This document shows, in pieces, positions 7,008-61,974 of a DNA stretch of 64,000 nucleotides. The notes under the pieces were generated by a model. The model saw nothing but the letters and a program-made list of their open reading frames with translations, ran no database searches and was not told where the DNA came from. The position numbers were made by a program, and so were the translations under genes. Source of the stretch: Bacteroidota bacterium. GTDB taxonomy: Bacteria; Bacteroidota; Ignavibacteria; UBA10030; SZUA-254. The number at the start of each line of letters is the position of its first letter. The stretch's first letter is position 1. The stretch lies in assembly GCA_036522515.1 (NCBI GenBank), contig DATDFQ010000024.1, positions 43,173 to 107,172 of the forward strand, given 5' to 3'.

Positions 7008-7200
7008 GGAGATCCTTCGGTCGCTCCGCTCCCTCAGGATGACAGAAAAGAACGCAAGCTGAAGCTTGCGGCTACCGATTCGTCGAGGGCACGTCGAAAA
7101 ACGCAAGCTGAAGCTTGCGGCTACCGAGTCCTTGAGGGCAGAACCAAGAACGCAAGCTAAAGCTTGCGGCTACCGAGCCGGCGAGGGCAGAGCGAGGGAC
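7008..7200. repeat. composite repeat block: one D-family element (…ctcaggatgaca) followed by three tandem ~57-bp units each carrying an A-family hairpin GCAAGCTnAAGCTTGC + GGCTACCGA
   Basis: gcaagctgaagcttgcggctaccga at 7054, 7102 and 7152. The inter-hairpin segments are themselves similar (…gagggca…aac), so this is a tandem duplication rather than a spacer array. Confidence 0.8.
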
Positions 7201-11829: not shown

Positions 11830-12005
11830 GCAAGCGGCGCGCAGCGCCGCAAGCAGGTTGGGACGCGGAGCGTCCCGGTATGCGTTCCCACGCAGAGCGT
11901 GGGAACGAGGAGATTGGTTGGAATGATTGCCGCACCGGGCCGGCAGCCGCAGCCTTCAGGCTGCGGTCTTTTCGCAACGCGACCTGAAGGTCGCGCCTAC
12001 CGACT
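11830..12005. repeat. cluster of hairpin repeats: two GC hairpins, one B-family (TTCCCACGC-AGAGC-GTGGGAA + CGAG) and two A-family hairpins (gcagccttcaggctgc, gcgacctgaaggtcgc + GCCTACCGA)
   Basis: Direct reading of 11834-11850, 11860-11876, 11881-11909, 11946-11966 and 11977-12005. The 3' end of the adjacent methyltransferase ORF runs into this block. Confidence 0.75.
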
Positions 12006-12889: not shown

Positions 12890-13100
12890 GGCCGGCACCT
12901 GCCGGACTGAAAGAACGCAGGCTAAAGCCTGCGCCTACCGAGTCCGAGAGATCGGTAGGTGCGACCTTCAGGTCGCGTGCAGCTTGACGCAGGCTAAAGC
13001 CTGCGGCTACCGAGTCCGAGACATTATTCGTTCCCGCGCAGAGCGGCGGAACGAGAATAAAGATCCCGACCTAAAACATGTCGGGATGACGAGACGAGAT
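12890..13100. repeat. composite hairpin-repeat junkyard (A, A-inverted, A, B and C families in series)
   Basis: gcaggctaaagcctgcgcctaccga; tcggtaggtgcgaccttcaggtcgcg; gcaggctaaagcctgcggctaccga; ttcccgcgcagagcggcggaacgag; agatcccgacctaaaacatgtcgggatgacgag. The ORF at 12885..13127 is an artefact of these repeats. Confidence 0.8.
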
Positions 13101-24456: not shown

Positions 24457-24879
24457 CTATGGGGTCTTTTTCTCCCCCTCGTTCTTGTCGTCATCGTCCT
24501 TCAAGCCCTCGCCGACTCTATGGGCCACCTTTTTTGTTTTTTTCCAACCCTTCTTGGCAGCTTTCTCCGTCCACTTCGCGCCTTTCTTGACGCCTTTTTT
24601 CCCTTCATGGTACGCCGACTTCGCCCCCTCCTTCGTTTTCTCCCAGCCCTTCTCAGTTCCCTCCACGCCCTTGTTGGTTACTTCCTTTGTCTTCTCCCAA
24701 CCCTCCTTTGTTCCCTCCTTCGTTTTCTGCCACCCTTCCTTTGTCCCCTCCTTTCCCTTCTCCAATGCTCTGGCGGCTTTTGCCACGGCCGTGTCCTGCT
24801 TCGATTGGCTCATGCCGAATGCCGGAGTCAGATAGAGGAAGACTGCCAGCCCGATGAGATAGCTTGATTGCTTGATCAT
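24457..24879 (-). CDS. small secreted Lys/Glu-rich protein made of ~7 tandem 11-residue KTKEG-type repeats (alpha-synuclein / LEA / apolipoprotein-like amphipathic 11-mers)
   Basis: Signal peptide MIKQSSYLIGLAVFLYLTPAFG with AGGAGA SD 7 nt upstream. Then TKEGWQKTKEG|TKEGWEKTKEV|TNKGVEGTEKG|WEKTKEGAKSA|YHEGKKGVKKG|AKWTEKAAKKG|WKKTKK. The plus-strand ORFs 24317..24835 and 24418..24867 are artefacts of the repeat. Confidence 0.55.
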   Translation of the reverse strand: MIKQSSYLIGLAVFLYLTPAFGMSQSKQDTAVAKAARALEKGKEGTKEGWQKTKEGTKEGWEKTKEVTNKGVEGTEKGWEKTKEGAKSAYHEGKKGVKKGAKWTEKAAKKGWKKTKKVAHRVGEGLKDDDDKNEGEKKTP

Positions 24880-32380: not shown

Positions 32381-32409
32381 GTCGGTAGCCGCAGCCTTCA
32401 GGCTGCGCT
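32381..32409. repeat. A-family hairpin (inverted orientation: TCGGTAGCC + gcagccttcaggctgc)
   Basis: tcgtcggtagccgcagccttcaggctgcg, overlapping the stop of the DUF309 gene. Confidence 0.7.
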
Positions 32410-35536: not shown

Positions 35537-36700
35537 GTGTCCGCCAAAAAGAAGAAATTGGTCGTCGGGTTGATGTCGGGGACGTCGGCGGATGGAATTG
35601 ACGCAGTCCTTGTCGAAGTGACGGGCTCCGGCGCCGGAACGCGCGTCCGGGAACTGGAATTTCAGACCTATCCGTACCACCCCGCGTTGAAGAAATTCAT
35701 TCTCAAAAACTCGGATCCGGACACGGCGCGCCTCGACGATGTGACGAGGCTTAACGTCCTTCTGGCGGAGTTGTTCGCCGACGCGGTAAAGAAGATCGTC
35801 AGGCGCTCGGGGAGGAAGTTGGAAAAGATTGACCTGATCGGGTCGCATGGGCAGACGATTCAACATCAGCCCCTTCTGAAAACGATGTTCGGACAAAGGA
35901 TCCGTGGCACGCTCCAGATCGGAAGCCCGTCGGTGATCGCGAAGCTCACCGGCGTCGCCACTGTGGGCGACTTTCGCCTCGCCGACGTGGCGGTGGGGGG
36001 ATCCGGGGCTCCCCTCGTTCCGTATGTCGATTACATTCTGCTCCGCTCGCGGAAACGGACCCGGGCGGCGCTTAACATCGGCGGAATCGCAAACCTCACG
36101 CTGCTTCCCAGGGGATGCTCGCTCAAGGACGTGATCGCGTTCGATACCGGACCAGGCAACATGGTGATCGATTCTCTCGCGCAGAAGTTTTTTGGAAAAT
36201 CCTATGACCGGGGAGGAGCGATCGCGTCCCGGGGGCGGCTCCTCGCTTCGCTCTTGAGCTGGATGGTTCGGCATCCCTATCTGAAACGAAGGCCGCCGAA
36301 ATCGACGGGTCGGGAGATGTTTGGCCGGCCGTTCATCCGGGAGATTCTGCGCCGATCAAAGGGGGAAGCAAAGGAAGATATCATTGCCACGGCGTCCGAG
36401 TTCACGGCCCTCAGCATTTATTTGGGGTACCGGCAGTTTCTCCGGCGAAGGGCAACGGTCGACGAACTTCTCGTAAGCGGGGGTGGATCTCGGAACGATT
36501 ATGTGATGAATGCCTTGAGAAGGTACTTTTCCGGTGCGAAGGTTTCCACGACTGACAACACCCCTCTTCCCTCTCGGGCCAAGGAAGCGATCTGCTTCGC
36601 GGTGCTCGCGAATGAAACGATGAGCGGGAACCCTTCAAACGTGATGGGCGCGACGGGGGCAACGAGGGAGACGATCCTCGGGACGATTTGTTTACCTTGA
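35537..36700 (+). CDS. anmK: anhydro-N-acetylmuramic acid kinase
   Basis: LVVGLMSGTSADGIDAVLVEV...GSHGQTIQHQP...DFRLADVAVGGSGAPLVPY...FDTGPGNMVID full-length AnmK pattern. Confidence 0.85.
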   Translation: MSAKKKKLVVGLMSGTSADGIDAVLVEVTGSGAGTRVRELEFQTYPYHPALKKFILKNSDPDTARLDDVTRLNVLLAELFADAVKKIVRRSGRKLEKIDLIGSHGQTIQHQPLLKTMFGQRIRGTLQIGSPSVIAKLTGVATVGDFRLADVAVGGSGAPLVPYVDYILLRSRKRTRAALNIGGIANLTLLPRGCSLKDVIAFDTGPGNMVIDSLAQKFFGKSYDRGGAIASRGRLLASLLSWMVRHPYLKRRPPKSTGREMFGRPFIREILRRSKGEAKEDIIATASEFTALSIYLGYRQFLRRRATVDELLVSGGGSRNDYVMNALRRYFSGAKVSTTDNTPLPSRAKEAICFAVLANETMSGNPSNVMGATGATRETILGTICLP

Positions 36701-37080
36701 AGAGGAAGAGCCCGCAGCCTAAAGGCTGCGGCTACCAAAAGAATGCAGCAGAGGCACCGGTAGCCGCAAGCTTTAGCTTGCGGGCTTTCTTGTCGGCGCA
36801 GAGCGCCGACGTATGCGTTCCCACGCAGAGCGTGGGAACGAGGAAAGAGAAAGGTCCAGAGGTATCGGTAGCCGCAAGCTTTAGCTTGCGTGAAACGTAA
36901 CGCAGCCTAAAGGCTGCGGCTACCAAGAGAAAGGTCCAGAGGTATCGGTAGCCGCAAGCTTTAGCTTGCGGGCTTTCTTGTCGGCGCAGAGCGCCGACAT
37001 ACGCGTTCCCACGCAGAGCGTGGGAACGAGGAAACGGTAGGGGCATCGGTAGGCGCAAGCTTCAGCTTGCGCTCTTCAAG
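36700..37080. repeat. largest hairpin-repeat junkyard: about 8 A-family hairpins (both orientations), 2 B-family units and 2 GTCGGCGC-AGAG-CGCCGAC hairpins, including an internal ~160-bp duplication
   Basis: cccgcagcctaaaggctgcggctacc...ggtagccgcaagctttagcttgcg...gtcggcgcagagcgccgac(g/a)tatgcgttcccacgcagagcgtgggaacgagg... repeated twice. The ORFs 36688..36900 and 36732..37058 are artefacts. Confidence 0.85.
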
Positions 37081-37108: not shown

Positions 37109-38251
37109 CTAAAAATCCCTCGTAAAGAAGAGATACAGGAACACTCCGCTCACTCCCAACTGAATCAACCGGTACACCGGCAGGTGATTTCTTCTCAAGA
37201 AATTCCAAACTGCTGCGCACGCGAAGAGAAAGGCCGTGAGAGCGAGCAGGACGCCCAGCGACGCCCCTATCCCCAGATCCTGGCCCAGTATTTCCTGGAG
37301 ATCAAGCTGGGGATTCACCGCCGATCCGTAAAGCAGAAAGAGGTGAATCACATAGACGAAGAGCGATTCCCTTCCGAGAAGCGTCAGGTACCCCTCCTTC
37401 TGCCGGAAACGCCCCGCAATACTCCAAAACCCGCACGTTATTAATAGCAACGCACCGGTCCGGATCAGGAAGTACTCGGGGCTCGTGAACCAGAAATTGT
37501 AGCTCGGATAAATCTGGACCGGCATCACGTCGAGGACCACGCCGGCCAGGATGAAACCCGTCCCGACCATGGAAAGGCGCTGGGCGAATTGGACTTCGCT
37601 CCCCTTCTCCGCGGCGGCGAGGAATTCCCACGAAACGATCGCCCCTGCGAACAGGAATCCGACAAAGGGGAAGAGCGGAAATGCCGATCCGTGGAGCCCG
37701 TTCAGGAGCTGCGCCGCCGGAAGAGGAAGGAAGTTCAGGAAGTCGACCTCCCACAACAGCGGAGTCAGAACGCATATCAGTCCCGTTATAACGGAGACAG
37801 CCACATAGAATCGCGTCTCCGATTTGAACAAGAAAACCAGCCCCTGCAGGAAAATCAGTCCGAACCCGATGCATGCCAGGACATCCGACTGGAAGAGCTG
37901 CAGGAGGTCCGCCGTTGTCCCTTCTACCATGATCTTCCGGAGCGAAAAGAACGGCAGGTGCACGACCAGCCCGAGGGCGAGGATGAGAAGATACCTCCTG
38001 AGTCTCCTCGCAACCGGCTCCCCCCAATGATGGTATTCGGCCCACCTCCGGCGGGTGGAGATCACAAATGTCAGCCCGGCCCCGAACAGGAAGGCCGGCG
38101 CCGTCAACCCGTGAAAGAACTCGTGCAACTGGAAGAGGTCCGACTGCTGCAAATCCCTGCTGAGGAGGCTGCGGAAGACGTGACCCTCCAACATCAGGAG
38201 GATGACGGCGGTCCTGTAAAGGTCGATGAAGAGAAGTCGCGGTTTGTCCAA
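37109..38251 (-). CDS. DUF1624 / HGSNAT-like acyltransferase-family polytopic membrane protein
   Basis: MDKPRLLFIDLYRTAVILLMLEGHVFRSLL... N-terminal R..LD..R motif and about 10 TM helices. Confidence 0.6.
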   Translation of the reverse strand: MDKPRLLFIDLYRTAVILLMLEGHVFRSLLSRDLQQSDLFQLHEFFHGLTAPAFLFGAGLTFVISTRRRWAEYHHWGEPVARRLRRYLLILALGLVVHLPFFSLRKIMVEGTTADLLQLFQSDVLACIGFGLIFLQGLVFLFKSETRFYVAVSVITGLICVLTPLLWEVDFLNFLPLPAAQLLNGLHGSAFPLFPFVGFLFAGAIVSWEFLAAAEKGSEVQFAQRLSMVGTGFILAGVVLDVMPVQIYPSYNFWFTSPEYFLIRTGALLLITCGFWSIAGRFRQKEGYLTLLGRESLFVYVIHLFLLYGSAVNPQLDLQEILGQDLGIGASLGVLLALTAFLFACAAVWNFLRRNHLPVYRLIQLGVSGVFLYLFFTRDF

Positions 38252-48352: not shown

Positions 48353-48370
48353 AACCCATGAGGGAGATCC

Positions 48371-50145: not shown

Positions 50146-50153
50146 CCCATTGT

Positions 50154-50240
50154 CGTCCGTTAGGGGTGTCCCGCAAAAAAGGGACTGAGAACATACCCTG
50201 GAAACCTGATCTGGATCATGCCAGCGTAGGGAAACGGAAG
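50154..50240 (+). promoter_or_regulatory. TPP (thiamine pyrophosphate, THI-box) riboswitch
   Basis: gtccgttaGGGGTGtCCcgcaaaaaagggaCTGAGAacatACCCtgGAAACCTGATCTGGATCATGCCAGCGtAGGGAaacggaa contains all conserved THI-element blocks (GGGGUGCC, CUGAGA, ACCC, AACCUGAUCUGGAUAAUGCCAGCG, AGGGA) with P1 tccgtt/aacgga. Confidence 0.85.
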
Positions 50241-50252
50241 GGAAATTGCTCA

Positions 50253-53295: not shown

Positions 53296-54744
53296 ATGAT
53301 TCATCTCGCCCTTTCAGACGTCATCGTCATCCTCCTTTACTTCGGAGGCGTCCTGTTCGTCGGTTTTCGGTCCGCCCGGAGAACGGCGGATTCCGAGGAA
53401 GATTTCCTGCTGGCAGGCCGTTCACTCACCCTCCCCATCTTCGTGATGACGCTCGTTTCCACCTGGTACGGCGGCATTCTTGGCGTCGGAGAATTCTCCT
53501 ACCGGTACGGAGTGTCAAATTGGGTGGTTCAGGGGGTCCCCTACTACATCTTCGCAGCGATCTTTGCGTTTATCCTCGCGAAGAAAATCCGGGCGACAAA
53601 CCTCTTCTCGATCCCGGATAAACTTGCCGCCTCGTACGACCGGAAGACCGCCGTTCTCGGTTCGGTGCTGACTTTCGTTCTCATGACGCCGGCCCCCTAT
53701 ATCCTGATGCTCGCCGTATTCATCCAGATGCTGTTCGGGTGGAGCCTGGTGGTGAGCCTCCTTGTCACCGCTATTGTCGCGGTTTCGTACCTTTTCGCCG
53801 GGGGATTCCGGGCGGATGTTGAAACCGACGTCCTCGAATTCTTCCTGATGTTCATCGGCTTCGCGGTCATCCTTCCATATTGCGGCATCCGGTTCGGCGG
53901 CTGGGAGTACCTCCAGTCGCACCTCCCGCCGTTACACCTGACGTGGCACGGAGGAAACTCGATCCAGTACATCCTGGTCTGGTTTTTCATCGCGCTCTGG
54001 ACGCTTGTCGACCCGGCGTTCCACCAGCGGTGCTATGCCGCAAAAAGCGGGGATGTCGCCCAAAGAGGCATTCTCATATCAATCGCGTTCTGGTTTCTGT
54101 TCGATTTCATGACAGCAACGGCGGGACTCTACGCCAGGGCCTCACTCCCCGCTCTGCAGGAACCGATGATGGCGTATCCGATGCTCGCCGAAGAGGTCCT
54201 CCCCCCGATCGCAAAAGGACTCTTCTACGTGGGGATGCTCGCGACGATCATGTCGACGCTGAATACGCTCGCGTTCGTGTCCGCGCAGACGCTGGGGAGA
54301 GATATCCTGTTACGAATGGGATTCGGCGGGGGGATGAGAAACGGTGCCGAACCCGTGGGCCTCGAAGGGTCGAGTCTCTCGAAGCGATACACGCAGATGG
54401 GCCTCATCCTGGCATTCGTCGTTTCGGTGGCCATCGCACTCGCGATACCGAGCGTGATCAAGATCTGGTATACGATCGGCACGGTTATCATCCCGGGTCT
54501 CCTGGTGCCCCTGATCGCGAGCTATTTCGAATCGTTGAAGATATCCGCCCGGTATGCGTTTCTTGCGATGGCGGCAGGATGGCTCACGTCGCTCGTGTGG
54601 CTGATTGCCGGGTTGGGTGAGAGTTCGGGAAAATATCCTCTCGGAATCGAGCCGATGTATCCCGGGTTGGCATTGAGCGTTGGGATATGGGGGGTGGGAA
54701 GGGCGAGCATGGTAAGGACGGCCGGGCGAAAGAACGCGGCCTGA
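53296..54744 (+). CDS. sodium:solute symporter (SSS) family transporter; candidate thiamine/precursor permease (ThiV-like) by context
   Basis: 482 aa with about 13 TM helices. ...FLLAGRSLTLPIFVMTLVSTWYGGILGVGEFSY... SSS signature. Last codons run into the repeat block. Confidence 0.75.
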   Translation: MIHLALSDVIVILLYFGGVLFVGFRSARRTADSEEDFLLAGRSLTLPIFVMTLVSTWYGGILGVGEFSYRYGVSNWVVQGVPYYIFAAIFAFILAKKIRATNLFSIPDKLAASYDRKTAVLGSVLTFVLMTPAPYILMLAVFIQMLFGWSLVVSLLVTAIVAVSYLFAGGFRADVETDVLEFFLMFIGFAVILPYCGIRFGGWEYLQSHLPPLHLTWHGGNSIQYILVWFFIALWTLVDPAFHQRCYAAKSGDVAQRGILISIAFWFLFDFMTATAGLYARASLPALQEPMMAYPMLAEEVLPPIAKGLFYVGMLATIMSTLNTLAFVSAQTLGRDILLRMGFGGGMRNGAEPVGLEGSSLSKRYTQMGLILAFVVSVAIALAIPSVIKIWYTIGTVIIPGLLVPLIASYFESLKISARYAFLAMAAGWLTSLVWLIAGLGESSGKYPLGIEPMYPGLALSVGIWGVGRASMVRTAGRKNAA

Positions 54745-54860
54745 AGGCCGCGCCTACCGACTATCAAGGTTTCGGCGCGGAGCGCCGATGTATGCGTTCC
54801 CACGCAGAGCGTGGGAACGAGAAGGCCTGAAGGCCGCGGCTACCTGCCGCGGCCCCAGCC
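54735..54860. repeat. A - GC-hairpin - B - A composite repeat
   Basis: gcggcctgaaggccgcgcctaccga; ggcgcggagcgccg; tgcgttcccacgcagagcgtgggaacgag; ggcctgaaggccgcggctacc. Confidence 0.8.
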
Positions 54861-59073: not shown

Positions 59074-61974
59074 TCACTGGCGGGGATAGAGCACGACGTC
59101 GACGTAGTTTTTCATGTCGAGGTAGCGGCGCGCCGCTTCCTGAAGTGCACCCGGAGTCAATCCGGCCACGAGCGCATCGTAGCGGTTGATGTTCGCCGGG
59201 TCCTCCTCGTTCTGATAATAGTAGCCCAGGTAGGAGAGCCAGAAGCCGTTGGTCTTCTTATCGGTTTCGCGCTCGCGCCGCTGCGTTTCCTTCACCTTGG
59301 CCACGTAGCTCTCCTCGACCCCCGATTCCTTGAACCGCTTGATCTCCGCGAACATCGACTTCGAAAGCTCCTCCACCCTCTCGGGCGCGCAGGAAAATCC
59401 GATCCTGAACGAATACCCGGGAACGGGGTAGTGCTCCGTCGACCCGGAGACCGATACGCCGTAGGTGCCCCCCTTCTCCTCCCTCAGAATCTCGCGGAGC
59501 CGGATTTCCAGCGTGCTGGAGAGGGAGTTGAGGATGTACCGGTTCCCCTGCGACCACTCGAAGGGGCCCGTAAAAATAATCTCCACCTGGCTCTTCGGCT
59601 CGATCCCCTTATGAACCGATTTCTCTATGACGCCTTTCGGAGGCCGCACTCCGATGTCCCTCCAGCGCTCATTCCGCCGGAGGGCGGGGAGGGAACCGAG
59701 GTACTGCAGAACGTACGGACGAATCTGATCGGGCGTGATATTCCCCACGAAGAGGAAGGTGAAATCGCTCGCGTCCGCGAACCGGTCGCGGTAAATGTCG
59801 AGCGACGATTGCAAATCCATCTGACCGAAGAGCTTCTCGGTCCAGGGCTGCCTCCGGGGATGGTATTGCGAAAGCGTCACCCCGACAGTGTCCTCGAACG
59901 CGGATTCCGGGCGGGAGCTCCGGTTCTGGAGATACGCTTTGATCCTCGACCTGTAGGCGAGATACGCGGAGCTATCCGCCCGCGGAGCCGTGAAATAAAG
60001 GTAGATGAGCTGGAACATCGTTTCGAGATCCCGCGGGGCGCTGTTGCCCGACAATCCTTCGTCCAGTTCGCCGATATTCGGGGAGACGCTCACCACCTTC
60101 CCGGCGAGCATTTTTTGGAGCATGATGGCGTCGAAGCCGGCGACTCCGCCCTCTTCGACGATCGAGGTGGCCGTCACCGCGGGAATATATTCGCTGTCGG
60201 GCACAACGGACGATCCGCCCGGGCTGAAGGCCGAAAAGATGACCTCGTCATTTTTGAAATCGGTGGGCCTCAGGATAACGCGGATGCCGTTTGAGAGACG
60301 CCATTCCGTCACGCCGACTGCGACGACTTCCTTCTGATCCGCAAGCGTCCCCGGAGCAGGCGGAGCCGCGAGAAGCGGCGCTCCCGAAACGGTATCCGCA
60401 TACGCCTCGACGCTCGACGCGTTCGCCGAGTCGAAGACAGCGGCAAGTTGCCGGGCCTCCGGCGTTTCCAGCCCCCGCTTCTCCGGCGCGTTCACCAGGA
60501 CGACCCTGTTTCTGTCGGTCATCCACCTCGCGGCGAACTGATCGATCTCGGAGAGGGAGATCTCCGGCAGGTATTTCTTGTACAACTCGAATTCAAAGGC
60601 GATCCCCGGGACCGGTTCCTTCTCCAGATAGTGCCGTATCAACTCGGAGGCAAGGCCCTCCGATTCCGTCTTGTCGCGCTCGCGGTACGCCTCCTCCATG
60701 AACCTGAGGAAGTCCTTCTTTTGCCGGTCCAATTCCGCCTGCGTGAATCCGTAGAGCTTGACTTTCCGGGCTTCCTTGAGAATCGTTTCCATTCCCCGCG
60801 GAATGCCCCCGTCCCTGACCCCCGCTTCGAGCGAGTAGGCGCTCTTCGTCCGGACGAGATTGCCGTAGGAGGAGGAAGCAAAGAGGAAGGGGGGATCCGG
60901 CTTCTTCGTCAGTTCGCCGAGCCGCTGGTTGAGCATGCTGTTGTAGAGCGCGCCGATCAGCGTCCGGCGATAATCGGCTTCCGTGCTCTCGGCCTCCACC
61001 TCGTGAAGATAATCGATGGAGACGCTCGAAAGCGTGGCTTCGGAGTCCGTGGCGATGGCGTAGAGGGTCTGATCGTGATCCGGGACAGGAAACGAAGGGG
61101 GGGATTGCGGCTGTTTGGCCGGTTCGATACCGGAGAACTGCTCCCGGATAAGCTGCTCGATCGACGATCGGTCGAAATCGCCGACCGCGATCACCGCCAT
61201 CTGCTCGGGGCGGTACCACGTCCTGTAGAAGCGCCGGAGGGTTTCCGGGCGGCATTTCTCGATAATCGGTTTCAAGCCGATCGGGAGGCGTTCCGCGTAC
61301 TTCGAATCCTTGAACAGAAAAGGGAATTGCTTGTCCCGCATCCGCGCCCCGGCCCCGCGTCCCAGCCGCCATTCTTCGATGATGACTCCGCGTTCCTTCT
61401 CCACCTCGTCGTCGTCGAAGCTGATCGTGTGCGCCCAGTCCTCGAGGATGACGAACGACTTCTTCACGATCTCGGCGGAATCCGTCGGAATCTGAAGCAT
61501 ATAGACGGTCTCTTCGAACCCTGTGTAGGCGTTGACGTCGGGTCCGAAGCGCATCCCCGCCGATTCAAGGTAACTGACGAGCTCCTGCTTCCTGAAATGA
61601 GCCGTTCCGTTGAACGCCATGTGCTCGACAAAATGCGCGAGCCCCCGTTGGTCTTCGTCTTCGAGAACCGAACCCGCGTTGACGACGAGCCGGAGCTCCG
61701 CCCGCTTTTCCGGCTTCCTGTTGGTCCTGATGAAATACGTCAGGCCGTTTTTCAACCTCCCGCTCGTCACCCCGGTGTCGAGCGGAAGCGGCCGGCTGAG
61801 ATCGGCGGCCGGAGACGCCTCCCCCGTTTTCACACCCTGGCGTGGTTCCCCTGGAGCGGGAGCCGGGTGGAAAAAAAAGAGGGCGGCAGCTGCGAGGAGG
61901 GTGGATGCGGGGATGACGGGGCGGCCGCGGCGGAGGTCTTTCGACGGCCGTTCAACGGGCGTACTCCGCCACAC
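59074..61974 (-). CDS. two-domain M16-family (pitrilysin/insulinase-like) zinc peptidase, secreted
   Basis: Inverted zinc motif HFVEHMAFNGT. Duplicated M16 and M16_C halves (about 960 aa). Probable GTG start near 61974 before the signal-like RPVIPASTLLAAAALFFFHPAPAPG; the ORF-track start at 62208 would overlap the upstream regulator gene. Confidence 0.75.
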   Translation of the reverse strand: MWRSTPVERPSKDLRRGRPVIPASTLLAAAALFFFHPAPAPGEPRQGVKTGEASPAADLSRPLPLDTGVTSGRLKNGLTYFIRTNRKPEKRAELRLVVNAGSVLEDEDQRGLAHFVEHMAFNGTAHFRKQELVSYLESAGMRFGPDVNAYTGFEETVYMLQIPTDSAEIVKKSFVILEDWAHTISFDDDEVEKERGVIIEEWRLGRGAGARMRDKQFPFLFKDSKYAERLPIGLKPIIEKCRPETLRRFYRTWYRPEQMAVIAVGDFDRSSIEQLIREQFSGIEPAKQPQSPPSFPVPDHDQTLYAIATDSEATLSSVSIDYLHEVEAESTEADYRRTLIGALYNSMLNQRLGELTKKPDPPFLFASSSYGNLVRTKSAYSLEAGVRDGGIPRGMETILKEARKVKLYGFTQAELDRQKKDFLRFMEEAYRERDKTESEGLASELIRHYLEKEPVPGIAFEFELYKKYLPEISLSEIDQFAARWMTDRNRVVLVNAPEKRGLETPEARQLAAVFDSANASSVEAYADTVSGAPLLAAPPAPGTLADQKEVVAVGVTEWRLSNGIRVILRPTDFKNDEVIFSAFSPGGSSVVPDSEYIPAVTATSIVEEGGVAGFDAIMLQKMLAGKVVSVSPNIGELDEGLSGNSAPRDLETMFQLIYLYFTAPRADSSAYLAYRSRIKAYLQNRSSRPESAFEDTVGVTLSQYHPRRQPWTEKLFGQMDLQSSLDIYRDRFADASDFTFLFVGNITPDQIRPYVLQYLGSLPALRRNERWRDIGVRPPKGVIEKSVHKGIEPKSQVEIIFTGPFEWSQGNRYILNSLSSTLEIRLREILREEKGGTYGVSVSGSTEHYPVPGYSFRIGFSCAPERVEELSKSMFAEIKRFKESGVEESYVAKVKETQRRERETDKKTNGFWLSYLGYYYQNEEDPANINRYDALVAGLTPGALQEAARRYLDMKNYVDVVLYPRQ

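Follow-up and report, generated by a model that had tools for sequence, protein, structure and literature searches.

The 64,000-nucleotide (nt) stretch of contig DATDFQ010000024.1 analyzed here (hereafter the window), from the Bacteroidota bacterium assembly GCA_036522515.1 (Ignavibacteria), contains short intergenic hairpins, called family A, which are very probably repetitive extragenic palindromes (REPs) carrying a GTAG tag and substrates of one clade of domesticated REP-associated tyrosine transposases (RAYTs, or TnpA-REP, of the HUH-Y1 type). An initial annotation of this DNA had read such hairpins as single-stranded DNA (ssDNA) substrates of a Y1/HUH transposase of the RAYT or IS200-like kind, under selection for both hairpin and tail, and this reading is supported by the GTAG tag, the covariation of the stems, the dispersal of the copies and the inverted flanking of RAYT genes by family A in other genomes. 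The largest REP super-family is recognized by just such a GTAG tag beside a short palindrome (Nunvar 2010, PMC2817692; Di Nocera 2013, PMC3733652). Judged from its sequence, family A is a REP family within this known class, with a consensus new to the searchable literature: a search of 8 million papers gave as the sole literal match an unrelated paper on CRISPR interference, and the supplements of Di Nocera 2013 held no matching consensus. The unexplained intergenic repeats of an uncultivated Ignavibacteria-like genome can now be given a probable name and a candidate enzyme clade.

Family A in the window and in other genomes

On the strand opposite to that of the initial annotation, the family A consensus is 5'-(TC)G-GTAG-S-CGCNNNC-TTYA-GN'N'N'GCG-3', a unit of 23 nt, often preceded by TCG, in which one spacer base separates the GTAG tag from a perfect stem of 7 bp closed by a 4-nt loop. 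The conserved tail GGCTACCGA that had been noted is real, but it is better read as its reverse complement, TCG-GTAG-CC, the canonical REP tag. The family of hairpins with tails is present as had been described: the pattern CGCNNNCTRAAGNNNGCGSCTACC, with up to two mismatches, gave 16 matches in the window (7053, 7102, 7151, 11942, 11978, 12916, 12954, 12988, 32384, 36713, 36759, 36867, 36901, 36947, 37048 and 54735) versus 0.02 expected from 100 shuffles, and one additional, 5'-truncated copy lies at 54821. Both consensus and stem are perfect in 14 of the 16 matches. The GTAG is located one base 5' of the stem in 16 of the 17 copies, the truncated one included; the exception is GCAG at 11943, and the copy at 12955 retains GTAG with an altered spacer base (GTAGGT).

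These 17 copies are spread over six intergenic sites and overlap open reading frames (ORFs) only at the extreme 3' ends of the latter. Three of the sites are spacers between convergent genes (32385, 36713-37071 and 54735-54843), and the remaining ones are found downstream of nuoF, between the 3' end of rlmB and the 5' end of nuoA, and in the divergent rlmB/pfkB spacer. Head-to-head (HH, GTAG outside), tail-to-tail (TT, GTAG inside) and head-to-tail (HT) dimers all occur in the window. Apart from the cluster at 36713-37071, which is described below, the sites are as follows, and each of those where composites had been annotated was verified as bearing family A.

7053-7173, minus strand: tandem array of three family A REPs that follow one another head-to-tail every 49 nt, each with stem AAG, just 3' of nuoF
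11943-12000: two inverted family A REPs (stems AGC and GAC; the first with the degenerate GCAG head) at the rlmB 3' end/nuoA 5' end
12916-13010: three family A REPs (-,+,-; stems AGG, GAC and AGG) in the divergent rlmB/pfkB spacer
32385-32407, plus strand: a solitary family A REP with convergent genes on either side
54735-54843: a family A REP (54735-54757), a C-B unit (54772-54819; see below) and a 5'-truncated family A REP (54821-54843)

At the last site, the ORF of a sodium:solute symporter (53296-54744) stops 10 nt inside the REP at 54735-54757. Its stop, read from the sequence, is a TGA in the REP loop (CC-TGA-AG), and the REP appears to supply the last codons and the stop of this gene.

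The stem variants that had been listed initially (middle triplets AAG, AGG, GAC, AGC and GGC) are all present. For a wider collection, the tag, the stem ends and the loop were fixed and both middle triplets were left free. The triplets were complementary at all three positions in 289 of 310 copies, namely in 14 of 14 exact-pattern copies of the window, 175 of 194 in reference-genome tiles and 100 of 102 around RAYT genes, whereas about five were expected, and at least 13 different middle triplets are in use. Among the 50 distinct sequences, the three variable pairs were changed on both sides in 12, 17 and 19 sequences; these 48 double-change cells compare with 12.2 ± 2.9 in column shuffles, which ignore the kinship of copies and of which none out of 500 reached 48. 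When the 3' arm was slid by 1-3 columns, pairing in the same 50 sequences fell from 95% to 22-40%. Moreover, matches to the looser pattern GTAG-S-N7-TTYA-N7 were bimodal in their Watson-Crick pairs, 383 having 6-7 pairs and 85 having 0-5 pairs, the latter class being a background-like tail. The compensatory changes claimed for the stems are thus far beyond chance. Hairpin-templated correction of quasi-palindromes during replication could also give matched changes. With at least 13 compensated stem variants of one 23-nt unit, family A may be regarded as a natural experiment in structure-only constraint, and REP sub-families with 'alternative complementary stem residues' have already been described (PMC3733652).

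A confinement of the copies to this locus, which would have spoken against the initial annotation, was refuted, since they are dispersed both within the window and in other genomes. A scan of the GTDB species representatives with an exact 26-nt pattern hit at least 120 tiles from at least about 85 assemblies, the latter number being our own tally of accession prefixes. Among the matches listed, the assemblies are from uncultivated bacteria and bear about 20 phylum-level labels, and it is only in this spread of nearly one and the same unit and enzyme that an otherwise classic REP family is unusual. The labels include Planctomycetota (Gemmataceae, Scalinduaceae), Ignavibacteria/Kapaibacterium/'Chlorobiaceae', Nitrospirota, Binatia, Zixibacteria, Calditrichota, Cloacimonadota, WOR-3, TA06, Omnitrophota, Elusimicrobiota, Aerophobetes, Armatimonadota, Chloroflexota, Gemmatimonadota, Nitrospinota, Bdellovibrionota, Desulfobacterota-type groups, Gamma- and Alphaproteobacteria, Clostridia and Patescibacteria. 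In the same set, 110 of 120 tiles hold a perfectly paired copy, tile GC content ranges from 32 to 72%, the flanks are unrelated to one another, and all-against-all clustering of the ORFs revealed no common gene.

Among relatives, the copies differ between orthologous spacers. The NuoF relatives of the window are metagenome-assembled genomes (MAGs) assigned to Ignavibacteria or 'Bacteroidota', with 75-86% identity, and the closest species representative, a CAZEJT01 MAG, possesses family A REPs. Where NuoF is 82-91% identical, no intact family A copy (up to three mismatches allowed) was present in those parts of the relatives' syntenic rlmB-nuoA...F region that were retrieved, versus eight in the corresponding region of the window. 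The rlmB-nuoA and pfkB-rlmB spacers are 74 and 124 bp long in the 82% relatives (L208, L209) versus 230 and 350 bp in the window. The expansion of family A appears to post-date the 82-91% NuoF divergence, because these relatives are without intact copies in the retrieved orthologous parts. In the 91% relative (L207), the segment 3650-3760, which corresponds to 7050-7200 of the window, has no intact REP downstream of nuoF. This spacer contains two '...CTGCGTTTTG' motifs resembling a REP 3' arm with its flank, which could be remnants of deleted hairpins.

The associated RAYT clade

In a tile of a groundwater MAG (L053), an ORF is flanked by two family A units on the left and one on the right, all with the GTAG tag facing away from the ORF. 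Once one frameshift had been repaired, this ORF matched the NCBIfam model NF047646 for REP-associated tyrosine transposases (E = 3.9e-21; 75.5 bits, the cut-off being 80) and Pfam Y1_Tnp (PF01797), and phmmer matched it to the Escherichia coli TnpA-REP of PDB 4ER8 (E = 1.5e-6) in an alignment that brings the HUH and YIxxNPV motifs into register. Its relatives number 760 when clustered at 90% identity, and JGI and NCBI call many of them RayT or REP-associated tyrosine transposase. Members of the clade are about 161 residues long. In an alignment of 25 of these relatives (60-91% identity), the HUH motif (H67-Q68-H69) and Y126 (in the motif YILDNPVRKG, aligned with the conserved YIxxNPV motif of E. 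coli TnpA-REP) are invariant, and W105-Q106-K107, D111-H112 and N130-P131 are invariant or nearly so, in line with the RAYT-specific WQxxFxDH motif.

When JGI metagenome contigs were scanned with this 25-sequence alignment, 80 RAYT loci were obtained. Family A units occur at 41 of the 47 loci whose RAYT is at least 46% identical to the clade, but at only 1 of the 33 loci with 45% identity or less (Fisher p = 4e-15). There is mostly one unit per side: the upstream one typically lies 7-30 nt from the gene with GTAG on the coding strand, and the downstream one typically 3-34 nt from it with GTAG on the other strand. The six loci of the former group without exact family A have one-base-indel variants of the unit, and the other RAYTs of 45% identity or less are flanked by related but different GTAG hairpins such as GTAGCGCAGGGCTTTAGCCCTGC and GTAGTCGCGGTTTCGTCCGCG. 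That the hairpin type tracks the enzyme clade in these sequence comparisons indicates enzyme-substrate co-evolution. In terms of gene order, a locus of this clade with inverted flanking family A is a REPtron arrangement, and in two loci (L210, L221) inverted family A doublets instead of singlets flank the RAYT gene. Thus, the mobilizing enzyme, which the initial annotation had called unknown, can be narrowed through other genomes to a specific RAYT clade, though it was not located in this genome.

Most of the RAYT contigs are shorter than 5 kb, and on long contigs the clade RAYT is situated among housekeeping genes. REP clusters and RAYT genes lie at contig breaks and probably add to fragmentation and gene loss in MAGs of many phyla. 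A different protein, which combines Y1_Tnp with a DnaA_C-type helix-turn-helix and is encoded in one REP-bearing locus (L083 89-1045(-), 319 residues), was rejected as mobilizer, since inverted repeats of another kind, containing GGGGTCAG, bound it and family A units do not flank it. This protein matches the published 'TIRYT' class (terminal inverted repeats GGGGWSAS), and two paralogous copies are present in one MAG (the other at L086 9-89(-)).

One REP-RAYT lineage may be spreading horizontally among uncultivated bacteria of sediment and groundwater under about 20 phylum-level labels, including Patescibacteria (candidate phyla radiation, CPR), and we put the likelihood of this somewhat short of even. 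Such spread is suggested because one GC-rich REP is common to genomes whose GC content ranges from 32 to 72% and because RAYTs that bear the labels Nitrospirota, Deltaproteobacteria and Planctomycetota share 63-75% identity. It is also suggested because the RAYT genes stay rich in AT whatever the GC content of the host and because intact in-frame REPs reside within RAYT ORFs. As to composition, the clade RAYT genes have 31-43% GC (down to 26% at third codon positions) even where the flanking 6-20 kb have 54-61% (L125-L221; for example, L153 and L155, with 37% vs 61% and 34% vs 54% among the pairs of gene and flank), the REPs of these loci have about 70% GC, and the more distant RAYT of L157 (47% identity) matches its host. 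As to the internal copies, an intact family A REP (GTAGCCGCAGGCTTYAGCCTGCG) is inserted in frame and on the coding strand at about nt 90 of the RAYT coding sequence in L140 (2037-2528), L143 (2238-2723), L179 (1019-1511), L137 (2375-2902) and L135, where it is translated as 'VAAGFSLR'. The RAYT of L137 has two tandem REP copies inside the gene, and RAYTs without the internal REP are about eight residues shorter there. On the other hand, no plasmid or phage carrier was found: clade RAYTs were absent from 72,556 plasmids (best identity 37%) and from 2.9 million viral contigs. Mis-binning of MAGs or a composition-independent constraint on the RAYT gene may produce the pattern instead.

Studies of other systems showed that RAYTs bind only the folded REP strand, that in perfect-palindrome REPs a stem mismatch lowers or nearly abolishes RAYT cleavage while complement swaps have mild effects, and that cleavage depends on the GTAG tag and on certain bases of the loop (PMC8266576). 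By analogy, a RAYT would recognize the folded family A hairpin together with its unpaired GTAG tag and loop bases on transiently single-stranded DNA, cleave nearby and transfer the strand, so that single REPs or inverted pairs of them would be seeded into further intergenic sites, with a preference for places beside existing hairpins. Copies with matched arms would stay substrates and be copied again, and one-sided mutants would drop out. The compensated sub-families and the conserved TTYA loop and tag would then result because recognition needs a perfect stem but not a given middle-stem sequence. We infer from this analogy both the action of a RAYT on the copies of the present genome and the chemistry of cleavage and strand transfer.

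The cluster at 36713-37071 and competing explanations

The densest cluster (36713-37071) fills the spacer between the convergent 3' ends of anmK and an HGSNAT_cat-family gene. It contains 10 hairpin units, compared with the approximately 12 annotated initially: six of family A, in both orientations and with different stems, two of family B (CGTTCCCACGC-AGA-GCGTGGGAACG) and two of hairpin C (GTCGGCGC-AGA-GCGCCGAC). Its internal duplication measures 134 nt instead of the roughly 160 bp reported.

35537-36700, plus strand: anmK (anhydro-N-acetylmuramic acid kinase), with its 3' end abutting the cluster
36713-36735, minus strand: family A REP, GTAGCC-GCAGCC-TTTA-GGCTGCG on this strand, stem AGC
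36760-36782, plus strand: family A REP, stem AAG; tail-to-tail pair (GTAG inside) with 36713-36735, with 24 nt between the units
36791-36810: hairpin C, first half of an approximately 58-nt C-B two-hairpin unit
36816-36840, plus strand: family B hairpin with an 11-bp stem, followed by AGGAA
36868-36890, plus strand: family A REP, stem AAG; head-to-head pair (GTAG outside, REPIN-like) with 36901-36923, 10 nt apart
36901-36923, minus strand: family A REP, stem AGC
36948-36970, plus strand: family A REP, stem AAG
36980-36999: hairpin C, copy 2
37004-37028, plus strand: family B hairpin, copy 2
37049-37071, plus strand: family A REP, GTAGGC head, stem AAG, TTCA loop
36713-37034: 134-nt duplication, 36713-36846 equalling 36901-37034 with 93% identity and a 188-nt offset
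37109-38251, minus strand: HGSNAT_cat-family membrane protein gene, convergent with anmK

Folded as ssDNA, the cluster reaches -123.4 kcal/mol versus -71.8 ± 4.1 for shuffled sequences (z = -12.5). It grew partly through segmental duplication and may be viewed as a mosaic resembling a BIME (bacterial interspersed mosaic element), where REP insertions in both directions would be combined with a lineage-specific C-B unit and one segmental duplication of 134 nt. A CRISPR array was dropped as an interpretation because unit spacing and orientation are irregular, and integron attC sites were dropped on inspection, since no GTTRRRY/RYYYAAC boxes were seen.

Family B has six copies in the window, five of which lie within about 100 nt of family A, and hairpin C has relatives at 11860 and 54772 besides its two copies in the cluster. 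Four B copies (11883, 36816, 37004 and 54795) are paired with C in the C-B unit, which also occurs at 11860-11907, and a degenerate B is found at 13029. Two more families are dispersed over the window. Family D reads CGTC-ATCCCGAC-(9 nt)-GTCGGGAT-CTT on the tagged strand, with an 8-bp stem starting with AT. A strict scan gave eight perfect copies, seven with the main stem or its compensated variant ATGCTGAC/GTCAGCAT and a divergent one at 48364. Family E (GATCCTTCGCTTCGCTCAGGATGACA) has four to five copies, with a TGTC tag on the other strand and an interrupted stem starting with AT.

Family D: 6524, 9018, 9059, 13062, 34472 (minus), 34546, 48364 (minus), 55563 (minus), 55613 and 58977
Family E: 9097, 22137, 48817, 58885 and about 7010-7047

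It is possible, though we would not favour it, that B, C, D and E represent a second REP-like kind related to the CGTC-tagged super-family and are not mere passengers of family A. The published super-family is defined by a CGTC, TGTC or CCTC tag, an 8-9-bp stem starting with AT, a 4-5-nt loop and a CCA tail, and has no known transposase (PMC3733652). Family D, with its CGTC tag, eight perfect copies and compensated variant, speaks for such a relation, as does family B, whose other strand begins with CTCGTT, close to the CTCGTC of family D. In addition, other REP-bearing loci contain 33 perfect canonical units [CT]GTC-AT-N6-loop(4-5)-N6-AT-CCA, versus about 0.15 expected by our own estimate, which fit this definition (PMC3733652). 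On the other hand, the tag of family B is CGTT instead of CGTC, TGTC or CCTC, its tag bases are paired and AT is not found at the start of its stem; hairpin C lacks a tag. Most B copies lie near family A and could have been co-amplified by duplication. Moreover, B and C were absent outside this lineage among about 215 loci, and in the loci fetched family D was likewise seen only in this lineage. Units of the family E or canonical CGTC/TGTC-tagged type were seen in many tiles of the other phyla, among them L031 (820 and 974), L083 (1425), L052, L024, L139, L009 and L032, and CGTC/TGTC-tagged REPs lie within tens of bases of family A in L031, in L083 and at about 7010-7047 of the window.

Several observations weigh against family A being RAYT substrates in this genome. 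The 64-kb window contains no RAYT, as the initial annotation had stated and our search confirmed, and the RAYT of this organism was not found through cluster membership and the contigs of several RAYT matches, all of which belonged to other organisms. (The tblastn matches of RAYT at 61129-61449 on the plus strand were spurious, being weak and lying antisense within a gene for a peptidase M16.) None of the copies was traced to an insertion event with a defined target or cleavage site. Two assemblies from this population, 100% and 99.9% identical to the window over about 20 kb, carry one extra 88-bp unit (truncated A, C and B) at 54820, but this polymorphism could reflect recombination or assembly collapse and not transposition. 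Tandem and segmental duplication account for part of the local copy number, as in the array of 49-nt period at 7053-7173 and the repeated segment of 134 nt. Finally, neighbouring units over all loci form 67 HH pairs (inverted doublets with a median spacer of 21 nt), 36 TT pairs and 54 HT pairs, and the inverted partners have different stems in 78 of 103 cases (51 of 67 for HH), which departs from the textbook REPIN folding into one long hairpin and favours two small hairpins instead. Tested against the global frequencies of the stems, a selection for unlike stems in inverted partners did not reach significance (p = 0.07 and 0.11).

The family A copies of this organism could be relics, because no RAYT was located in it. 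In that case the seeding RAYT would have been lost and the copies would now change by duplication, deletion and decay only, in agreement with the degenerate tags (GCAG at 11943, GTAGGT at 12955), the truncated copy at 54821 and the share of local copy number explained by duplication. We consider this unlikely. The perfect consensus and stem of 14 of the 16 copies argue for recent propagation or purifying maintenance, and the relatives with 82-91% NuoF identity, without intact copies in the retrieved orthologous parts, point to a later expansion. The absence of the gene says little, as 64 kb of a few-Mb genome would include a given single-copy gene in only about 2% of cases.

The initial annotation had offered an abundant structured RNA family as an alternative. 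In this case the units would act mainly in RNA, for example as 3' stem-loops for transcription termination or for the protection of mRNA 3' ends, the hairpin being kept by selection on the RNA and the link to RAYTs being secondary. Four of the six sites of the window indeed adjoin gene 3' ends, three of them between convergent genes, and several copies in GTAG orientation are followed by a T-rich run (GCG-TTCTT). A terminator scan flagged 3 of the 10 units of the cluster versus 1.0 ± 1.0 in shuffles, although this T-rich 3' flank (TTCTT) is weak and orientation-dependent. REPs have also been hypothesized to act in mRNA stabilization and transcription termination, many being thought to be transcribed (PMC3733652). 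However, orientations are mixed within one cluster, another cluster (12916-13010) lies in a divergent promoter spacer, and both the strand-specific GTAG and the non-palindromic TTYA loop are conserved, which a simple terminator does not need. The imperfect stems show no excess of G-T pairs (9 wobble vs 18 other mismatched cells), and the clade-specific linkage to a transposase gene would be left unexplained. The cluster had no Rfam match at gathering score and only chance-level, sub-threshold matches at E up to 10. An RNA family is therefore unsupported as the primary nature of family A and, in our judgement, improbable, while the units may have side effects at the RNA level. The only Rfam match of the window at gathering score, unrelated to the cluster, was a thiamine pyrophosphate (TPP) riboswitch (RF00059; 74 bits, E = 1e-12) at 50152-50249 on the plus strand, directly upstream of a gene cluster for a TonB-dependent receptor, thiamine pyrophosphokinase and an SSS transporter.

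Local tandem duplication of one ancestral hairpin segment, with no mobile element, would account for the 134-nt duplication, the 49-nt array at 7053-7173 and the identical stems of 42 of 54 tandem neighbours, but is very hard to credit, for the copies of the cluster differ in stem and orientation and family A is found at six separate sites of the window and in at least about 85 unrelated assemblies with dissimilar flanks and no common neighbour gene. Duplication is refuted by this dispersal as a complete explanation and remains a contributor to local copy number. A repeat of another type, a 33-nt periodic C/T-rich direct repeat at 24619-24792 (five copies, 61-76% identical), is probably coding, in one of two overlapping ORFs.

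Comparison with known systems

Interpreted as RAYT substrates, the family A elements have several counterparts. In REP design and REPtron arrangement, family A is closest to the perfect-palindrome (group-3-type) REP systems, as far as sequence allows the assignment. It resembles the REP-Sm/SMAG elements of Stenotrophomonas maltophilia, a system of this type (PMC8266576; PMC3733652), in its small unit of 23 nt, where a short and perfect palindrome follows a 5' GTAG, in the conserved loop bases and complementary-stem sub-families, in the inverted REPs flanking the RAYT gene, and in the HH, TT and HT dimers and clusters. The two differ in that the family A spacer is a single base, its stem 7 bp and its loop the 4-nt TTYA, whereas the S. 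maltophilia stem is 8 bp and its loop 3 nt. The host range of family A covers about 20 phylum-level labels among the matches listed, whereas that of the S. maltophilia system is one gammaproteobacterial genus.

By design, family A also resembles the REPs of Haemophilus influenzae (GTAGGGTGGGCTTcAGCCCACC) and Thioalkalivibrio (GTAGGTCGGCCTTCAGGCCGAC) listed in Table 1 of Nunvar 2010 (PMC2817692), which share the GTAG, a short spacer, a GC-rich stem of 6-7 bp and a C...G pair closing a TTCA or TTTA loop; both loop variants coexist in family A as they do there. The stem and spacer sequences differ, and those REPs amount to tens of copies in single species. The E. coli REP/BIME system with TnpA-REP (RayT/YafM; PDB 4ER8) has a homologous enzyme, the GTAG and alternating mosaic clusters at gene 3' ends. 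However, E. coli REPs are imperfect palindromes of 35-40 nt with a functionally important bulge, the E. coli enzyme has a C-terminal extension, and for family A no sites bound by IHF or gyrase are inferred.

With IS200/IS605 insertion sequences (ISs), the RAYT clade shares the HUH-Y1 domain (PF01797) and probably the recognition of an ssDNA hairpin with an adjacent guide-like tetranucleotide. IS200/IS605 elements are multi-copy as a whole and end in two sub-terminal hairpins that differ from each other and lie on one strand, whereas the clade RAYT is apparently single-copy and flanked by inverted copies of one hairpin that vastly outnumber the gene. IS200/IS605 ends were rejected as an identity for family A in view of the same inverted unit on both sides, the great excess of hairpins over genes and the absence of tnpB. 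Of the other families, D is like the CGTC-tagged REPs such as dRS3 and RPE (Di Nocera 2013) in its CGTC tag and 8-bp stem starting with AT, and unlike them in its 9-nt loop and CTT tail. Family E is like them in the TGTC tag and the start of its stem, and family B differs from them in its paired CGTT tag and 11-bp stem.

Finally, the REPINs of Pseudomonas fluorescens (Bertels & Rainey 2011; PMC3116915) are similar in that inverted doublets are common and flank the RAYT gene in some genomes, although family A partners, unlike those of REPINs, usually differ in stem. REPIN-RAYT systems have been described as vertically inherited, whereas the composition and distribution of family A suggest horizontal spread, which, if true, contrasts with a lineage-restricted, vertically inherited partnership of REPIN and RAYT. 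Such a cross-phylum occurrence would extend the existing picture of REPs and their transposases rather than overturn it.

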